From a virus (Duplodnaviria; Caudoviricetes), in the IMG/VR virus record IMGVR_UViG_3300025902_000014, positions 1-64,000 of that record: 64,000 nt of DNA, one strand, 5' to 3'. Under the pieces are notes generated by a model. That model was not told the DNA's origin, did not search any database, and was given only the letters and a program-made list of their open reading frames with translations. Numbering within the stretch: position 1 is the stretch's first letter; each line of letters starts with the position of its first letter. This document shows, one piece after another, positions 4,116 through 54,693 of this stretch. Made by a program: the position numbers and the translations under genes.

Positions 4116-4411
4116 CGCAGCGTCCGAACAACCTCGTTCTGGCCTACCGGAAGGTGAAGTTCGATCCCACTCCTGCGGATGGCGGCATTCCCGTCGTCAA
4201 CCTGACGGTGGAGCCTTTCGCCTTCAACGACGACGCCTTCGCCAAGACCCACGGGGAGGCCGGGGTTCGGGCCATGGCTGAGCTGGTCGAGAAGGAAGCC
4301 CGGGTGGCCGAGTTGGAGCGGGCCGGGAAGTCCACGGAAGAGGCGGTGCTGGAGGTCTTCGGCCCGCCGATCGACGTTCCTGAGATCGACCTGACGAAGG
4401 GAGTGAAGTGA
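4112..4411 (+). CDS. hypothetical protein
   Basis: GTGA overlap with both neighbours. Confidence 0.6.
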   Translation: MTQRPNNLVLAYRKVKFDPTPADGGIPVVNLTVEPFAFNDDAFAKTHGEAGVRAMAELVEKEARVAELERAGKSTEEAVLEVFGPPIDVPEIDLTKGVK

Positions 4412-5004
4412 GAGCGAGCTTCATGGAGAAGCCCTGTCCTGACTGCAAGGGCACGGGCAAGGTCAAGGCCCGGACCAAGTCCGGGCAGGGGCGCATGGCG
4501 AAGACCAAGGGCTCAGCGACGGAGCTGCGGGTCGCCAAGATGATCGCCACAGCCATCGGGGTGCCGTACGAGGAGTGCCGCCGGACCCCGAACTCGGGAG
4601 CCCTCATCGAGCGGGGAGATCTCCGGCTCTCCAACCTCGCCCTCGAACGGTTCCCGTGGTTCGTCGAGGTCAAGGCCCGGGAAAGCTGGGACTTCTCCCA
4701 GCTCTTCAACCGGACCCTGAGTGACCTTGGGAAGTGGGAGCCGATCGCGTGGTTCCACGATGCCATCGTGAAGATGAAGTCGGACGCGAAGAACGGGTTC
4801 GGTGACGGGAAGGAGCACCCTGTTCTCCTCGTTCTCCTCCAGAACCGGAAGCCCCCGTTGGCCATGACGTTCACCATCTGGGCGAACGGCTGGAACGAGA
4901 GCTTCGTGAGCCTCGGAGTGGGGTACCAGTACACGATCGTGAAGTTCGAGGACGTCCTCATGTTGGCGACGAAGAAGCTGGCGGAGAACAAGAGCCACGA
5001 GTAA
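4408..5004 (+). CDS. PD-(D/E)xK nuclease, Holliday junction resolvase-like, with N-terminal CxxCxGxG
   Basis: KGSATELRVAK...RRTPNSGA...GDL...FVEVK pattern typical of phage Hjc-like resolvases. Confidence 0.75.
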   Translation: MRASFMEKPCPDCKGTGKVKARTKSGQGRMAKTKGSATELRVAKMIATAIGVPYEECRRTPNSGALIERGDLRLSNLALERFPWFVEVKARESWDFSQLFNRTLSDLGKWEPIAWFHDAIVKMKSDAKNGFGDGKEHPVLLVLLQNRKPPLAMTFTIWANGWNESFVSLGVGYQYTIVKFEDVLMLATKKLAENKSHE

Positions 5005-30763: not shown

Positions 30764-31276
30764 ATGAGCGAAACGACACGGCGTGGAATTCTGGGGCTCT
30801 TTGGCACGGCTGCGGCGACCGCTGTGGCCGCCCCGCTGGCGGCCAGCCTGCCCACCCCCCACATCGAGGCCCCGCCCCCGGAGCTGCCCCCCTGCCCCCC
30901 GAGGCGGCACTGCCGGATCTGCGACAGGGTCTTCGACAAGGGCGAGAAGCAGATGCCCTTCCTCGACTTCTTCATCGTCGAGCGGAAGGGGCCGAAGGGG
31001 ACTTCCGTCGAGGCCATGGCCCTCGCCAAGGCGACCGGGCTGGTGGTGGCCGGAGCCCTGACCGGGGACGAGCACGAGAAGGTTCCGCTCCGGGACTTGG
31101 AGATCACGAGCGGGGTGGACATGTGCTGCGAGAAGTGCTTCGTTCTCTACACGCACGGCCAGCTCGTTCATCACCCCGATGGGACGGTGGCCATGGAGAA
31201 GCCCGCGCTCTCGGTGGCGGAGCAGAGGGTCTGGAAGAACTACCGGGAACGCATGATGCGGTTTCCGGGTGTCTGA
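30764..31276 (+). CDS. hypothetical protein with twin-arginine-like N-terminus and CxxC pairs
   Basis: TTRRGILGLFGTAAATAVA. Confidence 0.6.
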   Translation: MSETTRRGILGLFGTAAATAVAAPLAASLPTPHIEAPPPELPPCPPRRHCRICDRVFDKGEKQMPFLDFFIVERKGPKGTSVEAMALAKATGLVVAGALTGDEHEKVPLRDLEITSGVDMCCEKCFVLYTHGQLVHHPDGTVAMEKPALSVAEQRVWKNYRERMMRFPGV

Positions 31277-32276: not shown

Positions 32277-32642
32277 ATGTGGTTCCAGAAGTTCATCGCT
32301 CCCGAGGGGTCCGACCTGAAGAGCCAGATCGTTCAGGTGGTCACCGAGGCGCTCAACCTTCAGATCGGCGAGCCGATCGACGACCAGACCTTGGACGTCA
32401 TCGTGGACACCGTCTTCGATGGGGTGGGCGAGATCTATGCCGAGGACTTCCTCGTGGAATGCTCGACCCGTAACAACCCCCCGGACCTCGTGGACCGGAA
32501 CGGCCTCGCTGTCCGGCTCATCTTCTTCGGGGAGGCCCACCCGAAGCCCGATGACCTGTATGGGAAGGTGGACATCCTGTTCGACCCCACGAATGGGAAT
32601 CAGACCCCCAAGGCCGAATGGCTGTCGGAGACCAGACGGTGA
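32277..32642 (+). CDS. stand-alone tail-sheath C-terminal-like fragment
   Basis: GEPIDDQT...DFLVECSTRNNPPDLVDRNGLAVRLIF resembles sheath F-x-V-x-C-D-xx-NN-x-P-xx-ID-x-N-x-L. Confidence 0.6.
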   Translation: MWFQKFIAPEGSDLKSQIVQVVTEALNLQIGEPIDDQTLDVIVDTVFDGVGEIYAEDFLVECSTRNNPPDLVDRNGLAVRLIFFGEAHPKPDDLYGKVDILFDPTNGNQTPKAEWLSETRR

Positions 32643-33061
32643 AGCTCGACGCTGTCCTCTTCATCTGCGACAAGCCGAATAAGAATGGGCGGATCTACTC
32701 CCGGGAGCTGGCGAACAGGATCGTCGAGCGGTTTCACGACATGCCCGATCTGTGCGGGCAGGTGGGGATGCCCGAGGACGGGAAGCTCCTCCTGAACAAC
32801 ATCAGCCACGTGGTCCGGGAGCTGAAGGTGACGGAAGTCGGGGAGGACTGGGGGCTCGTGGCGACCATCGAGACCCTTCCATTGGCAGAGAAGGGGCTGA
32901 CCCTCGCGAAGCTCTTGGAGGACGATGACACCCGCAAGCTCTACACCTTCCGGACTGCCGGAACCGGCACCCTGACCGAGATGCCGGACGGGACCGTCCG
33001 CATCAACAACGACTACGTGTTGGAGTCCGTGAACCTCGTCCCGGCCAAGGACGCCGCGTGA
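32639..33061 (+). CDS. catalytically degenerate gp21-like prohead protease paralog
   Basis: NKNGRIYS, GQVGMP (vs ELDHP), ETLP-KG-L, RTAGTG (vs SSRGEG), SVNLV (vs FDFV) aligned with 51290-53236. Confidence 0.8.
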   Translation: MKLDAVLFICDKPNKNGRIYSRELANRIVERFHDMPDLCGQVGMPEDGKLLLNNISHVVRELKVTEVGEDWGLVATIETLPLAEKGLTLAKLLEDDDTRKLYTFRTAGTGTLTEMPDGTVRINNDYVLESVNLVPAKDAA

Positions 33062-49812: not shown

Positions 49813-49881
49813 CGCGTTCATCCTCCTGAAAAACCAGCAGTTTTAGGCATGGCACTTCAAGAGGTTTCTCTATCGGGGTGC

Positions 49882-50520
49882 ATGAGTGCCCCGCACCTCA
49901 TCTACGGCTTGGCAGATCCCGAAACCGGAAAGCTCCGGTATGTCGGGCAGACCCACCGTACGCTGGATGCCCGGCTCTACCACCACATCTGGGATGCCAT
50001 TCACCACTCTCACAAGAACCGCAAGGACGCTTGGATCTGCAACCTGACGGTGCGGGGCCTGCGTCCGAACATCGTACTTCTGGAGGAGACATCCTCATGG
50101 AAGACCCGTGAGAAGCACTGGATCGCCCAGTTCCCGGATCTCCTGAACTGCACCGAAGGCGGAGAGGGGATCGTCGGGTACAGGCACACCCCGGAAGCCC
50201 GGCAGAAGATCGCTGCGGCGAATCGGCTCAAGGCTGGGAAGAAGCGCACCGGGGAAGCTCTGGCCAACATCACTCGGGGCAACCTGAGTCGGCGGGGTCG
50301 GCCTCAGTCGGCGGAGACCATCGCGAAGAAGGTGGCGGCTCTTCGTGGGAAAAAGGCATCTCCTGAGCTGTGTGCGAAGCGGAAAGCCATGTGGGCTACT
50401 CCGGAACGCCGGGAGCAGGGCCGCCTGAACGCGCAGAAACGTTGGGATAGGGAAGAGGCCGAGTGGCGGGCTTCCTATCCAGAGTCATTCACCAGTCTGA
50501 GCACAACTCAGACAAACTAG
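49882..50520 (+). CDS. GIY-YIG homing endonuclease with NUMOD3 repeats
   Basis: IYGLADP...RYVGQT...R...H, LLNxTEGGEG, HTPEARQKIA. Confidence 0.9.
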   Translation: MSAPHLIYGLADPETGKLRYVGQTHRTLDARLYHHIWDAIHHSHKNRKDAWICNLTVRGLRPNIVLLEETSSWKTREKHWIAQFPDLLNCTEGGEGIVGYRHTPEARQKIAAANRLKAGKKRTGEALANITRGNLSRRGRPQSAETIAKKVAALRGKKASPELCAKRKAMWATPERREQGRLNAQKRWDREEAEWRASYPESFTSLSTTQTN

Positions 50521-50816: not shown

Positions 50817-51293
50817 ATGCTGAACCGGGTGACCCAAGTCTTCTCCCCGTTCGGGTCGGGGGGCTTTCTCAGGCAGATGGCCGAGGCTGCGCTTCGGAAC
50901 GTCAAGGAGTTTGAACTCAAGGTCGGCTCCTCTGAGAAGAGCCCCTACGACTTCCCGGTGGAGAAGCTCGGGGATCTCATGCTGGTCAGCATCGACGAGG
51001 AAGGTACGGTCCTCCGGGCACGGACCGTCAAGAACTCTCCCGGGAAGGATTACCAGTGGGCGGGTCCATGCACCCCCAAGGCGAATCTGTTCCGTGTCCT
51101 GAAGTTCGTCGGGGATGACCCTCTCGACCGTCAGAAGTTTCTTGACTACGTCTACAACTTCCGGAACGTCCTGATCGACCTCAAGAAGGAAACCATCGTC
51201 GTCATCGACGAGAACACGGCGGAAGCGTTGACGGTCACCAGCGGGGTTCAGGCTCCTCGGGTGGCCGCCATCATGACCGCACTGGGACAGTGA
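50817..51293 (+). CDS. hypothetical head-module protein
   Basis: coupled to protease gene. Confidence 0.7.
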   Translation: MLNRVTQVFSPFGSGGFLRQMAEAALRNVKEFELKVGSSEKSPYDFPVEKLGDLMLVSIDEEGTVLRARTVKNSPGKDYQWAGPCTPKANLFRVLKFVGDDPLDRQKFLDYVYNFRNVLIDLKKETIVVIDENTAEALTVTSGVQAPRVAAIMTALGQ

Positions 51294-53236
51294 TGAGACT
51301 TCTCGAAGCATCTTACTTTGAGGGTTACGAGATCCTCGAAGGCTCGGGCGAGGGGGCCAAGCCCCTGATCGTGCGGGGTGTGTTCGGGCGGGCGAATGTC
51401 AAGAACGAGAACGGACGGATCTACCCGGACAGCGTCTGGAGGAAGGTTCTCTCTGAGAGTTCCGAGGCCATGGGACGAATCAAGTCCCGGAACTTCTTCA
51501 GCGAACTCGACCACCCGGACGATGGCCGGACTCTTCTTCAGCGTGTGGCCGGACTGACCACGCGACTGGAGATGCGTCCCGACTGGGCCGTGTACGGTGA
51601 GGCGGAGATCCTCCCGACCCCGGCGGGGAAGATCCTCGAAGCCCTTTTCCGCTCGAAGGCCAAGATCGGCATCTCTTCGCGTGGGGAAGGGGATCTCCTG
51701 AAGACCGAGTCTGGTGACATCGTTCAGGAGAACTTTGAACTTCAGGCATTCGACTTCGTCCACAACCCCTCGACTCAGGGGGCCTATCCCAACCCCGTCT
51801 TCGAGCATCTTCTGGCCCGAAGGACAGGAGATCGAATGATGGATCTGATGGAAGAGTTCAAGGCACTGGAGAGGTCCGTCCTCGAACTCGTGAACCTGAA
51901 GCCCTCGGAGGTGTCCGCCGCCATGCGGCCCCTCGTCGAGCGTCAGGCGACCGAGACGATGGTCAAGCTCTCCAAGCTGTCCGAGTCGGCGGGGGACATG
52001 AAGCCCCTGTTCATCGGACTTCTCTCCGAACTGAACACCGCTCGTCGTCCTTTCGTCCGTCTGGGCGAGAACGACGGCGGCAACTACCACCCGGGGCTCG
52101 TGGACAAGCTCCTCGCGGCGACCAACACGGCCAAGGCCGGTGAGGCCGGAAGCGTCGAGGCCCTCCCCGCGACGGTGGAACCCGACTCTCTCCCCCTCAT
52201 CCCCGGCGCGGACCCGAAGGCCGTGGGTGAGTCCAAGACCGAAAAGACCCGCAAGGAGGAAGCCAAGATGGCCGAGGCCGCGAAGAAGAATTCCATGAGC
52301 AAGGCCCTCCGGTCGGCGATCCGTGAAGCCGAGGACGAGCTGGATCAGATCGCCACCGACGAGAGCGAGGACGAGACCGCCCTCGCGGCACAGGAGGCGG
52401 CGCAGAAGTGCGAGTCCCGGCTCCTCAAGGCCGCCCGGAAGGTCATGGAGGGGGACGGCGCGAACCTCATGCCCGACTCCTACGAGCCCGCCGAGCCCAA
52501 GGGCGAGGAAGAGATCGGCGAGTCCGAGGACGGTGACGAGGACGACGTCCCGACCCTCACGGCGTCCGACGACGACGAGAACCAGTTCGGCGAGGACGAG
52601 AACGGCCCGCCGCCCGAGATTCAGGCCAAGATCGACGCCAAGGAGTCCAAGCGCAGGCGGCCCTCCGCCCTCCGCCGGTTCTCCGAGAGCGACGACGACA
52701 GCATCGACATCCCGGCCCCTCCCAAGGAGGAGGCCGAGACCGAGCCCACGGACGACGACGGTCAGCCCCTCCCCCCGATGGAGGCGAAGATCGTCAAGAC
52801 CTACCGCAAGCTCGTCCGCGAGAACCGCCGGATGCGCTACGAGGCGAGGGTCACCGAGGCCATCGCGGCCAAGGCCATCGCCAAGCTCACCCGCAGGGTC
52901 CGCGCCACCGAGGCGGCCCGCCCGTCCGCCCCGGCCTTCATCGTGGCCGGTGGCCAGAAGATCCCGGTCAAGGTGGCCGGGTCGGTCATCGAGTCCCTCG
53001 TCCGCCGCTACAAGGAGCTGAAGAAGACCTCCGGCGGCAAGGTCACGGAGTCCGCCGGTTCGCCCGACCCGGGCAGCATCTCCGAGGGTCCGTTCGGCGT
53101 TCCGTCGTTCGCCAAGGTGGGCAACGTCGCCCGCCTGAACGAGGCCGCCACGGCCGGACGCAAGACCGAGAAGTCGATCCTCGAAAGTCAGGCTGAGCTG
53201 GGTGCCCGCGTGGCCGCCCGGATCGGTCGGGTCTAA
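51290..53236 (+). CDS. T4 gp21-like prohead protease fused to acidic scaffold/core domain
   Basis: NENGRIYP, ELDHP, ILPTPAGKIL, GISSRGEG, FDFVHNPSTQGA; acidic coiled-coil C-terminus; directly upstream of MCP. Confidence 0.92.
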   Translation: MMRLLEASYFEGYEILEGSGEGAKPLIVRGVFGRANVKNENGRIYPDSVWRKVLSESSEAMGRIKSRNFFSELDHPDDGRTLLQRVAGLTTRLEMRPDWAVYGEAEILPTPAGKILEALFRSKAKIGISSRGEGDLLKTESGDIVQENFELQAFDFVHNPSTQGAYPNPVFEHLLARRTGDRMMDLMEEFKALERSVLELVNLKPSEVSAAMRPLVERQATETMVKLSKLSESAGDMKPLFIGLLSELNTARRPFVRLGENDGGNYHPGLVDKLLAATNTAKAGEAGSVEALPATVEPDSLPLIPGADPKAVGESKTEKTRKEEAKMAEAAKKNSMSKALRSAIREAEDELDQIATDESEDETALAAQEAAQKCESRLLKAARKVMEGDGANLMPDSYEPAEPKGEEEIGESEDGDEDDVPTLTASDDDENQFGEDENGPPPEIQAKIDAKESKRRRPSALRRFSESDDDSIDIPAPPKEEAETEPTDDDGQPLPPMEAKIVKTYRKLVRENRRMRYEARVTEAIAAKAIAKLTRRVRATEAARPSAPAFIVAGGQKIPVKVAGSVIESLVRRYKELKKTSGGKVTESAGSPDPGSISEGPFGVPSFAKVGNVARLNEAATAGRKTEKSILESQAELGARVAARIGRV

Positions 53237-53268: not shown

Positions 53269-54693
53269 ATGGAACTCAACGAAGCAACGTTCAAGATGGG
53301 AACCTCGGAGCGGGTCAACAACGCTCTGGCCGCGTCCAAGTGGCGCAGGTTCCTCGAAGCCGCCAAGGTGCCCGAGGCCAAGCGGCCCTTCATCGCCCGG
53401 CTCTGCGAGAACCAGCTCACGTGGATGAGCCAGCTCGACGAGGAGACCCGTGTGGCCTCCATCGGGTCGTTCGAGAAGTTCGTCTTCCCGATGATCCGTG
53501 CGGTCTACCCGAACCTCGTCGCGCAGGATCTCGTCTCGGTGCAGCCGATGGAGGCTCCGACCTCCCTCGTGTTCTACCGCGACACCCGGTTCGGCTCCAA
53601 CAAGGGCGCGGTGAAGGCGGGTGATCCGCTCTTCAGTGCGCGCACCGGCTGGAACAACGCCTCCGGGTTCAACTACACCTCCGAGGTCGTCGAGAACGAA
53701 GAGATCGAGATGTCCACGGGCACGGGCGTGTCCTTCACGGGCAACCTCGCCTACCACCCCCTCCGTCCGGGCGGGCTGGTGATCTCCTACCTCAAGACCG
53801 CCGGGACCGCTGCGACCCTCACCGACGACGGCGCGGGCGGCCTCATCGGCGCGGCCGGTGAGCTGGCCGGGACGAACACGATCGACTACGGCACGGGTGC
53901 CTACGTCATCACCTTCGACACCGGGAAAGACCCGGCGGCCGGGGCCTTCACGGCCACGTACGACTACAACTCCGAGGGCTACGGGGACATCCCGCAGATC
54001 GACCTCATCCTCACGAGCACGCCCGTCGTGGCTCGCCCGAGGAAGCTCCGCGCTCGGTGGAGCATCGAGGCGGCGGCCCAGCTCAAGGCGGTCCACGGTG
54101 ACGAGGCCGAGGTCGAGCTGATGACCGACATGGCCAACGAGATGCGGATCGAGGTCGATCGCGAGATCATCTACGACCTCATCACCCTCGCCAACTCCAA
54201 CAACACCTCTGGCACGATCACCGAGACGACGTTCGCCAAGGCCGCGCCTTCGAACATCAGCCTCTACCTGCACCGCCAGAGCTTCATCTACTCGCTCATC
54301 GAAGCCTCGAACAAGATCTTTCAGGCGACCCGTCGCCACGGAGCCACGTGGCTCATCGGCGGCACGAACGTCTGCTCGATCATTCAGGGTCAGGAGGGCG
54401 AGCAGTTCGTCCCGGCCGGTGGCGACTATCAGGGTTCCGGCGTCCAGTTCATCGGCACCCTGAAGGGCCAGTGGAAGGTCTACCTCGACCCGTACATGAA
54501 CGCGGACGAGGCCATCCTCGGCTACAAGGGCGGGTCGTTCCTCGACAGCGGCTACGTCTACGCGCCGTGGGTTCCCTTCTACGCCACCCCGACCATCTAC
54601 CTCGACGACTTCGTCGGCCGCAAGGGGCTCTTCACCAGCTACGCGAAGAAGCCGATCAACGGGCTCTTCTATGCAAAGTTGAGGCTCACCTAA
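53269..54693 (+). CDS. major capsid protein (T4 gp23-like)
   Basis: ENQ, PMIRAVYPNLVAQDLVSVQPM, RKLRARWSIEAAAQLKAVHG, EVDREII, YLDPY, GYKG...YVYAPWVP. Confidence 0.95.
   Translation: MELNEATFKMGTSERVNNALAASKWRRFLEAAKVPEAKRPFIARLCENQLTWMSQLDEETRVASIGSFEKFVFPMIRAVYPNLVAQDLVSVQPMEAPTSLVFYRDTRFGSNKGAVKAGDPLFSARTGWNNASGFNYTSEVVENEEIEMSTGTGVSFTGNLAYHPLRPGGLVISYLKTAGTAATLTDDGAGGLIGAAGELAGTNTIDYGTGAYVITFDTGKDPAAGAFTATYDYNSEGYGDIPQIDLILTSTPVVARPRKLRARWSIEAAAQLKAVHGDEAEVELMTDMANEMRIEVDREIIYDLITLANSNNTSGTITETTFAKAAPSNISLYLHRQSFIYSLIEASNKIFQATRRHGATWLIGGTNVCSIIQGQEGEQFVPAGGDYQGSGVQFIGTLKGQWKVYLDPYMNADEAILGYKGGSFLDSGYVYAPWVPFYATPTIYLDDFVGRKGLFTSYAKKPINGLFYAKLRLT

Follow-up and report, generated by a model that had tools for sequence, protein, structure and literature searches.

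A small non-peptidase homologue of the prohead protease encoded outside the head genes of an uncultured tailed phage

A short gene in the middle of a 64,000-nucleotide stretch of tailed-phage DNA (Caudoviricetes; IMG/VR record IMGVR_UViG_3300025902_000014, positions 1 to 64,000; hereafter the window) encodes a protein, P0001, which is a non-peptidase homologue of the prohead protease and belongs to an old, virus-only family. The window is part of a 96-kb virus record with an estimated completeness of 67%. Prohead proteases belong to the core machinery of tailed phages and of herpesviruses. P0001, referred to below as the mini pseudo-protease, is very probably a dead member of the S77 fold family that is maintained by selection, and it is encoded apart from the true prohead protease of the same phage, which is fused to a scaffold-like region and is named here by the start of its gene at position 51290.

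The relationship between the two proteins can be seen at several levels of comparison. At 24% identity and E = 3e-6, BLASTP aligned residues 14-134 of the mini-protein with the stretch 39-157 of the 51290 protein, and the blocks of similarity that a preliminary description of this DNA had quoted were all found in the two sequences. With a profile built from six orthologs, the 51290 protease was the sole other match in the 96-kb record (E = 8.4e-10), and PHROG family 207 (head maturation protease) matched P0001 with an E value of 4e-6. A Pfam search with P0001 gave no match at E <= 1 and the curated cut-off of PF03420 was not reached; the NCBIfam and PDB sequence searches with the same protein returned nothing usable. 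Many relatives of P0001 lie above the PF03420 cut-off, for example with 63.7, 50.5 and 38.7 bits.

The AlphaFold2 model of P0001 (predicted local distance difference test score, pLDDT, 86.5; predicted template modelling score, pTM, 0.80) was compared with T4 gp21 (PDB 5JBL), a comparison that the preliminary description had proposed and that gave a fold match: VIA yielded a Z score of 13.5 with a root-mean-square deviation of 2.5 Å over 126 residues, and Foldseek an E value of 4.9e-6 with probability 1.0. Herpesvirus proteases came next in the fold search (Z 8.6 and 6.4), and P0001 has the herpesvirus-protease-like barrel fold. Because the VIA alignment spans gp21 residues 38-172 only, P0001 is a bare barrel core. 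It is without the 37 N-terminal residues of gp21, which include the LL-x-E plug and the self-cleavage site, and 13 residues precede its N-x-N motif; in the gp21 zymogen the N-terminal segment plugs the active site and is self-cleaved (PMC9958956). The final D-A-A of P0001 aligns with P-D-A-W of gp21, so that the ~40 C-terminal residues of gp21 are missing as well. The two missing regions are those of gp21's autoinhibition and, as inferred from SPN3US gp245, of prohead entry. Of five defining features of the S77 family, P0001 thus has the fold, but not the PF03420 score, the catalytic triad, the termini or the location in a head module.

The catalytic triad of gp21 consists of His, Ser and Asp (PMC5694885). 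The catalytic columns of the alignment could be identified because the 5JBL chain has Ala in two places, the His column and the first Ser of S-S-R-G, where wild-type T4-like sequences have His and Ser; the catalytic Ser is the residue two positions before R-G. When P0001 was compared at these columns with 11-12 true S77 proteases (Table 1), His, Ser and Asp were all found replaced, by Met44, Arg105 and Asn132, respectively, as the preliminary description had stated, and the adjacent invariant Arg was also lost (Ala107). As all triad columns are replaced, the serine-protease mechanism is gone, and the catalytically dead prohead-protease homologue that had been proposed is supported by sequence, profile, fold and residue loss alike. 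Other positions are retained. N14, N16 and Y20 are found in 100% of the true proteases and of the mini family, and R18 in 100% of the true proteases and 84% of the mini family; neither T4 gp21 nor the 51290 protease has the Ser56-His57 pair. Conservation between the true and the dead proteins is highest in the N-x-N-x-R-x-Y, T-P-x-G, G-x-G and S-H motifs.

Table 1. Positions in the window of the mini pseudo-protease gene, its diagnostic residues and the genes discussed with it
Feature	Position	Strand	Residues in P0001	Description
Mini pseudo-protease gene (P0001)	32639..33061	+		Intact 140-codon frame; 140 amino acids
N-K-N-G-R-I-Y	32678..32698	+	14-20	N-x-N-x-R-x-Y motif common to true S77 proteases
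G-Q-V-G-M-P (catalytic His column)	32756..32773	+	40-45	True proteases 100% His (E-L-D-H-P in the 51290 protein), P0001 Met44
Ser56-His57	32804..32809	+	56-57	98% of the mini family, 73% of true proteases
F-R-T-A-G-T-G	32948..32968	+	104-110	Replaces the S-S-R-G block
Nucleophile Ser (first Ser of S-S-R-G)			105	True proteases 100% Ser, P0001 Arg105
Second Ser of S-S-R-G			106	True proteases mostly Ser, P0001 Thr106
Arg of S-S-R-G			107	True proteases 100% Arg, P0001 Ala107
S-V-N-L-V (triad Asp column)	33026..33040	+	130-134	True proteases 100% Asp (F-D-F-V in the 51290 protein), P0001 Asn132
P-A-K-D-A-A (C-terminus)	33041..33058	+		P0001 stops where true proteases run on into a C-terminal extension
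Upstream 121-amino-acid ORFan	32277..32642	+		Translationally coupled to the mini pseudo-protease gene
True prohead protease with a scaffold-like region fused to it	51290..53236	+		648 amino acids; PF03420 E 5.5e-13, phrog_207 E 2.3e-41, 5JBL E 3.5e-8
Major head protein gene	53269-54693			After the protease-scaffold fusion; followed by the head-tail adaptor

P0001 is not an isolated protein. A word-indexed search gave five small relatives. When 1.84 billion representatives were searched exhaustively with a profile, 3252 matched at E <= 1e-3, of which 548 also reached E <= 1e-10. The best 150 of the 3252 matches are 116-190 amino acids long (median 134), save three longer proteins, which have extensions or domains in tandem. 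True proteases reach ~99 bits with the broader family profile and the matches below the top 150 are a mixture of true and mini proteins, so only ~150 clusters at 50% identity, nearly all of them metagenomic, are claimed here for the family. The nucleophile column is occupied by Arg in 145 of 151 members (96-98%), the His column by Met in 109 of 152 (~72%) and the Asp column by Asn in 99 of 152 (~65%), and only one member (P0151) has His at the catalytic His column. As the substitutions at the three columns recur across the mini family, the replacements are themselves conserved. The motifs of the family, G-x-[LIVM]-G-M-P, F-R-x-[AS]-G-x-G and S-[IV]-N-x-V, are present in P0001 as GQVGMP, FRTAGTG and SVNLV. 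Since the motifs shared with the true proteases are kept, the catalytic positions hold a fixed new set of residues and a near-invariant Arg stands at the place of the nucleophile, the site appears to have been re-tooled rather than to have decayed.

The ratio of nonsynonymous to synonymous substitution rates (dN/dS) between P0001 and its 74%-identical ortholog P0004 is 0.34, a value indicative of purifying selection. The frame has the composition of a coding sequence in a genome of 64% G+C (G+C content of 0.90 at third and 0.36 at second codon positions). The GTG start codon at 32639 is preceded by a GGAG sequence (32627-32630) 8 nucleotides upstream and overlaps the stop codon of the preceding gene by 4 nucleotides. 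An in-frame ATG at 32618 could be used instead, but the GTG is preferred because the orthologs P0004 and P0005 start at the equivalent codon; P0004 has the same start codon and the same 4-nucleotide overlap, as checked on the DNA, and P0005 is called from the equivalent residue, as judged from the protein sequence only. A further copy lies on the related contig L003, where 4357-4800 corresponds to 32618-33061 of the window; the gene is 99.3% identical and its flanks ~92%. The two copies differ at three positions, one of which changes Phe to Leu beside Arg105, and with three nonsynonymous and no synonymous changes the dN/dS from this pair is uninformative.

In a maximum-likelihood tree, one branch parts 56 mini-proteins from 12 true proteases, with a support of 90 in the Shimodaira-Hasegawa-like approximate likelihood-ratio test. 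The mini-protein and the protease of the same phage are not sisters, either in this phage or in the 595-kb phage LR756511, and the split from the true proteases is old. The preliminary description had called P0001 a paralog of the 51290 protease; the homology stands, but P0001 is not a within-genome copy, and the proteases of other phages are at least as close to it as that of its own phage, so that the term applies only loosely. When mini-proteins with long branches were included (g109 of Yersinia phage fHe-Yen9-04 and the small copy of a related phage, G002), the edge of the mini group was blurred, and these two as well as P0151 had no stable position. P0151, a metagenomic protein of 175 amino acids, keeps His and Asp and has a Ser beside the nucleophile column; from its sequence it may be an active minimal protease. 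Among the longer members, an unrelated N-terminal region of P0152 (452 amino acids, metagenomic) is followed by two mini pseudo-protease domains in tandem, and P0106 (278 amino acids) and the form from LR756511 (297 amino acids) carry extensions; no recognisable extra domain was found in any of these three fusions.

The family appears to be confined to viruses. In the ESM Atlas, the nearest clusters in feature space are 100% viral. A tblastn search of 50,697 deposited phage genomes gave true proteases and found the type with Met, Arg and Asn at the three catalytic columns (Met/Arg/Asn type) only in the uncultured phage LR756511, in which the true protease lies 280 kb from the mini gene. A structure search of viral models added more mini barrels in cultured jumbo phages. 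A scan of IMG/VR with a degenerate pattern yielded mostly true proteases, with two of 80 loci of the Met/Arg/Asn type and two odd ones besides, and no prophage or bacterial copy was detected in a pattern-limited scan of 185,579 species genomes. A link to YonD of phage SPbeta, prompted by an Atlas neighbour cluster and by a weak precomputed PF27290 match, was rejected, as there was no match in the SPbeta genome. Every larger genome checked, namely this record, LR756511 and fHe-Yen9-04, also carries a true protease. The contexts of six family members are all non-structural, with early, replication or accessory genes, and never a head module; the neighbours include genes for phosphoribosyl pyrophosphate synthetase, dUTPase, PhoH and thymidylate synthase, for a DnaB-like helicase and DNA polymerase A, rIIB, and runs of ORFans. 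PHROG and Pfam scans of the neighbours gave unknown-function families only. The related high-G+C phage G002 from IMG/VR has its protease fusion at 56.4 kb and a more degenerate small copy of ~150 amino acids at ~33.3 kb (L104, ~1400-1893), a position similar to that of the window gene; this copy has I-P-D-D in place of the His motif and L-Y-L-R-G-R-G in place of S-S-R-G.

A subgroup of 30 of the 152 relatives (including P0013, P0028, P0044, P0100 and P0109) consists of proteins of ~170 amino acids in which an initial M-[DN]-R-R-x-F-L leads into 10-18 uncharged residues and then a variable linker. In the AlphaFold2 model of one such long form (pLDDT 87.8), the N-terminal helix has values of 53-63 and is detached from the domain, which has values of 90-98. 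Three hidden Markov models (HMMs) for twin-arginine translocation (Tat) signals match the long forms with scores short of their thresholds (13 bits where 16.7 are required, 12.7 where 22.7 are required). The N-terminal extension is thus likely to be a Tat signal, which would be unusual for phage proteins; its F-L-x-E part also resembles the L-L-x-E N-terminus of the true proteases. P0001 is without such an extension and begins directly at the first strand of the domain.

What a protease core without its catalytic residues might do can be put forward as follows. P0001 would be unable to cut by a serine-protease mechanism and would act as a binding module through its retained groove, with the N-x-N-x-R-x-Y, G-x-G and S-H motifs and the near-invariant Arg. 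A mode of action by non-catalytic binding is moderately likely; it is supported by the retained motifs and by the fixed new residues at the catalytic positions, the near-invariant Arg among them, and it fits the non-structural context, the lost N- and C-terminal regions and the conserved replacement residues. The likeliest ligands of a cytoplasmic P0001 would be the I/L-x-E segments at which the active protease cuts, or this protease itself. P0001 would then compete with cleavage, or shield against it, outside the prohead, and what is shielded could be the leader peptides of the phage or, in the host, 'tripwire' loops by which protease activity is sensed. The latter have a precedent, as the activity of T4 gp21 was reported to cleave a loop bearing LPE in a nucleotidyltransferase of the cGAS/DncV-like type (CD-NTase) and thereby to switch on the cyclic-oligonucleotide-based antiphage signalling system (CBASS), of whose operons ~24% have loops of this kind (2026 preprint, PMC12991175). 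The idea of a shield or decoy therefore has a concrete and testable target.

Taken as a whole, a dead core acting as a binder and competitor is the best explanation that we can offer, as a plausible but tentative one, and the choice of an I/L-x-E segment or of the protease as the ligand is put forward more tentatively still. Several observations weigh against it. No neighbour is conserved, since only the mini-protein itself was shared in an all-against-all BLASTP comparison of the open reading frames (ORFs) within 5 kb at six loci. The Met and Asn replacements are only ~65-73% conserved, and as a few mini-proteins keep some or all of the catalytic residues (P0151 and g109 of fHe-Yen9-04) the family is not uniformly dead. 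Moreover, if the Tat-like relatives, ~20% of the total, are exported, the ligand common to the family would not be a component of the prohead or of the cytoplasm. A wider form of the proposal, in which the Met/Arg/Asn mini-proteins would be a widespread phage device that binds I/L-x-E segments without cutting, as a shield against protease-sensing immunity or a protector of leaders, and in which the Tat-exported relatives would do likewise in the periplasm, is speculative and unlikely.

Other explanations were weighed against the same data. The mini-protein might be a head-assembly factor, a poison or regulatory subunit that joins a gp21-type pentamer or binds the zymogen and so tunes when and where the protease acts. 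That gp21 forms pentamers and is activated under tight control (PMC9958956), that the mini-protein retains the whole core fold and that a true protease co-occurs in every larger genome checked would suit such a role, which nevertheless seems unlikely, given that the C-terminal extension inferred to be prohead-targeting in SPN3US gp245 (PMC5694885) is missing, that the mini gene is never in the head module, that the mini-protein does not cluster with the protease of its own phage in the tree and that the Tat-like relatives would sit in the wrong compartment. An anti-defence role in the narrow sense, in which the mini-protein would occupy the bait loops of the host, such as the I/L-x-E activation loop of the CBASS CD-NTase, or another sensor of phage proteases, and so keep the true protease from setting off immunity, is likewise doubtful. 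It draws on the activation of CBASS by gp21 cleavage of the LPE-bearing loop and on the share of operons with such loops (PMC12991175), on the place of the gene amid accessory ORFans typical of counter-defence loci and on the diversity and patchy distribution of the family; yet this case is purely circumstantial, no known anti-defence gene adjoins the gene in the Pfam and PHROG neighbour scans, and exported relatives could not reach a cytoplasmic sensor.

The subgroup with putative Tat signals raises a different possibility, namely a function unrelated to proteolysis, perhaps at the cell envelope, with the barrel re-used as a binding or structural module and P0001 doing the same job inside the cell. 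The 30 relatives with the M-[DN]-R-R-x-F-L start and uncharged stretch, their detached low-confidence helix and near-threshold Tat HMM matches speak for it, and the near-invariant Arg where the nucleophile once stood hints at a new, anionic ligand; since the HMM scores stay below the cut-offs, no fusion or neighbour suggests a ligand, and the best conserved part of the family consists of the motifs common with true proteases, we regard it as somewhat unlikely. That P0001 is still an enzyme by means of other residues, for example the near-invariant Ser56-His57, is improbable. Both residues are 98% conserved, some mini-proteins keep Ser and Asp (g109 of fHe-Yen9-04) or the full triad (P0151), and an alternative His nearby was likewise noted for SPN3US gp117. 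However, neighbouring residues of a strand face opposite sides, the S-H pair is found in 73% of the true proteases, which have a complete triad, and is absent from the active T4 gp21, and the nucleophile column is Arg in 96-98% of the members. Least probable of all is a functionless, decaying remnant of a duplicated protease gene: the protein is indeed truncated at both ends and without catalytic residues, but the intact frame, the third-position G+C content of a coding sequence, the dN/dS of 0.34 and the confident predicted fold argue for a maintained gene, and ~150 divergent clusters keep the same length and replacement residues, so that the conservation data already contradict this explanation.

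The surroundings of the gene in the window are those of a phage with T4-like features, which include SbcCD-type nuclease genes at the left end, the protease-scaffold fusion, the major head protein and the head-tail adaptor. The mini pseudo-protease gene, amid ORFans, is separated by 18 kb from the protease-scaffold and major head genes, which lie downstream of it. The 121-amino-acid ORFan that precedes it is kept beside the mini pseudo-protease in the two nearest relatives (contigs L003 and L101) with a dN/dS of 0.32, and had no match in Pfam or PHROG. In the 51290 protein the protease domain occupies approximately residues 1-200, with His75, Ser129 and Asp155, and the scaffold-like region fused to it is long and acidic with many I/L-x-E motifs. 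A homing-endonuclease-like gene (phrog_314; 49849-50520, + strand) is located just upstream of the head module. A 170-amino-acid ORF (30764-31276, + strand), 1.4 kb upstream of the mini pseudo-protease gene, starts with M-S-E-T-T-R-R-G-I-L-G-L-F-G and an Ala-rich stretch, a Tat-like signal, and has a weak Pfam match to the N-terminal region of ubiquinol-cytochrome c reductase.

The existence of a large, conserved family of dead mini-proteins suggests that viral proteolysis is subject to a further, unstudied level of control, by which phages might regulate themselves, protect substrates or evade a defence that senses proteases. Automated annotation either misses such genes or labels them 'prohead protease', and head genes are consequently miscounted in metagenomic phages. 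No paper on the Met/Arg/Asn mini family or on its Tat-bearing forms was found in the literature.

Among known systems, T4 gp21 (MEROPS S77, PF03420, 5JBL) shares with P0001 the fold and the N-x-N-x-R-x-Y, T-P-x-G and G-x-G motifs, whereas P0001 is without the His, the Ser, the Asp, the Arg of S-S-R-G and both terminal regions, and its gene lies outside the head module. The herpesvirus assemblins (of varicella-zoster virus, human cytomegalovirus and Epstein-Barr virus) have the same barrel fold with lower scores, but they are active Ser-His-His enzymes of ~220 residues without sequence similarity to P0001. The giant phiKZ-like phages have 'cryptic' protease paralogs, SPN3US gp117, 201phi2-1 gp206 (145 amino acids) and PhiPA3 gp143 (136 amino acids), which were called unprecedented in 2017 (Ali et al., PMC5694885). 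Like P0001, these are small, truncated second copies of a head protease, encoded apart and presumed inactive; unlike it, they derive from the S80 branch (phiKZ gp175), and gp117 keeps Ser and Asp and is without the aligned His only. The 51290 protease has a marginal PF20034 match only. Membership in the same family as SPN3US gp117 and PhiPA3 gp143 was rejected at the HMMER level, where the family profile matches nothing in either genome at E <= 1, and the cryptic paralogs are therefore, at that level, a parallel case outside the present family. Of the relatives found in cultured phages, the nearest is g109 of Yersinia phage fHe-Yen9-04 (VUE36155.1, 144 amino acids, BFVD A0A2C9CXB2), annotated as 'hypothetical protein'. 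It shares its mini architecture with P0001 and matches the family profile with 76 bits (Foldseek E 4.8e-9); its gene adjoins a PhoH-like gene within a non-structural part of a genome that has a separate true protease. The g109 protein differs from P0001 in keeping S-S-R-G and the Asp, having lost only the His, and in its long branch in the tree. This cultured relative, together with the T4/CBASS assay, makes the question experimentally tractable.

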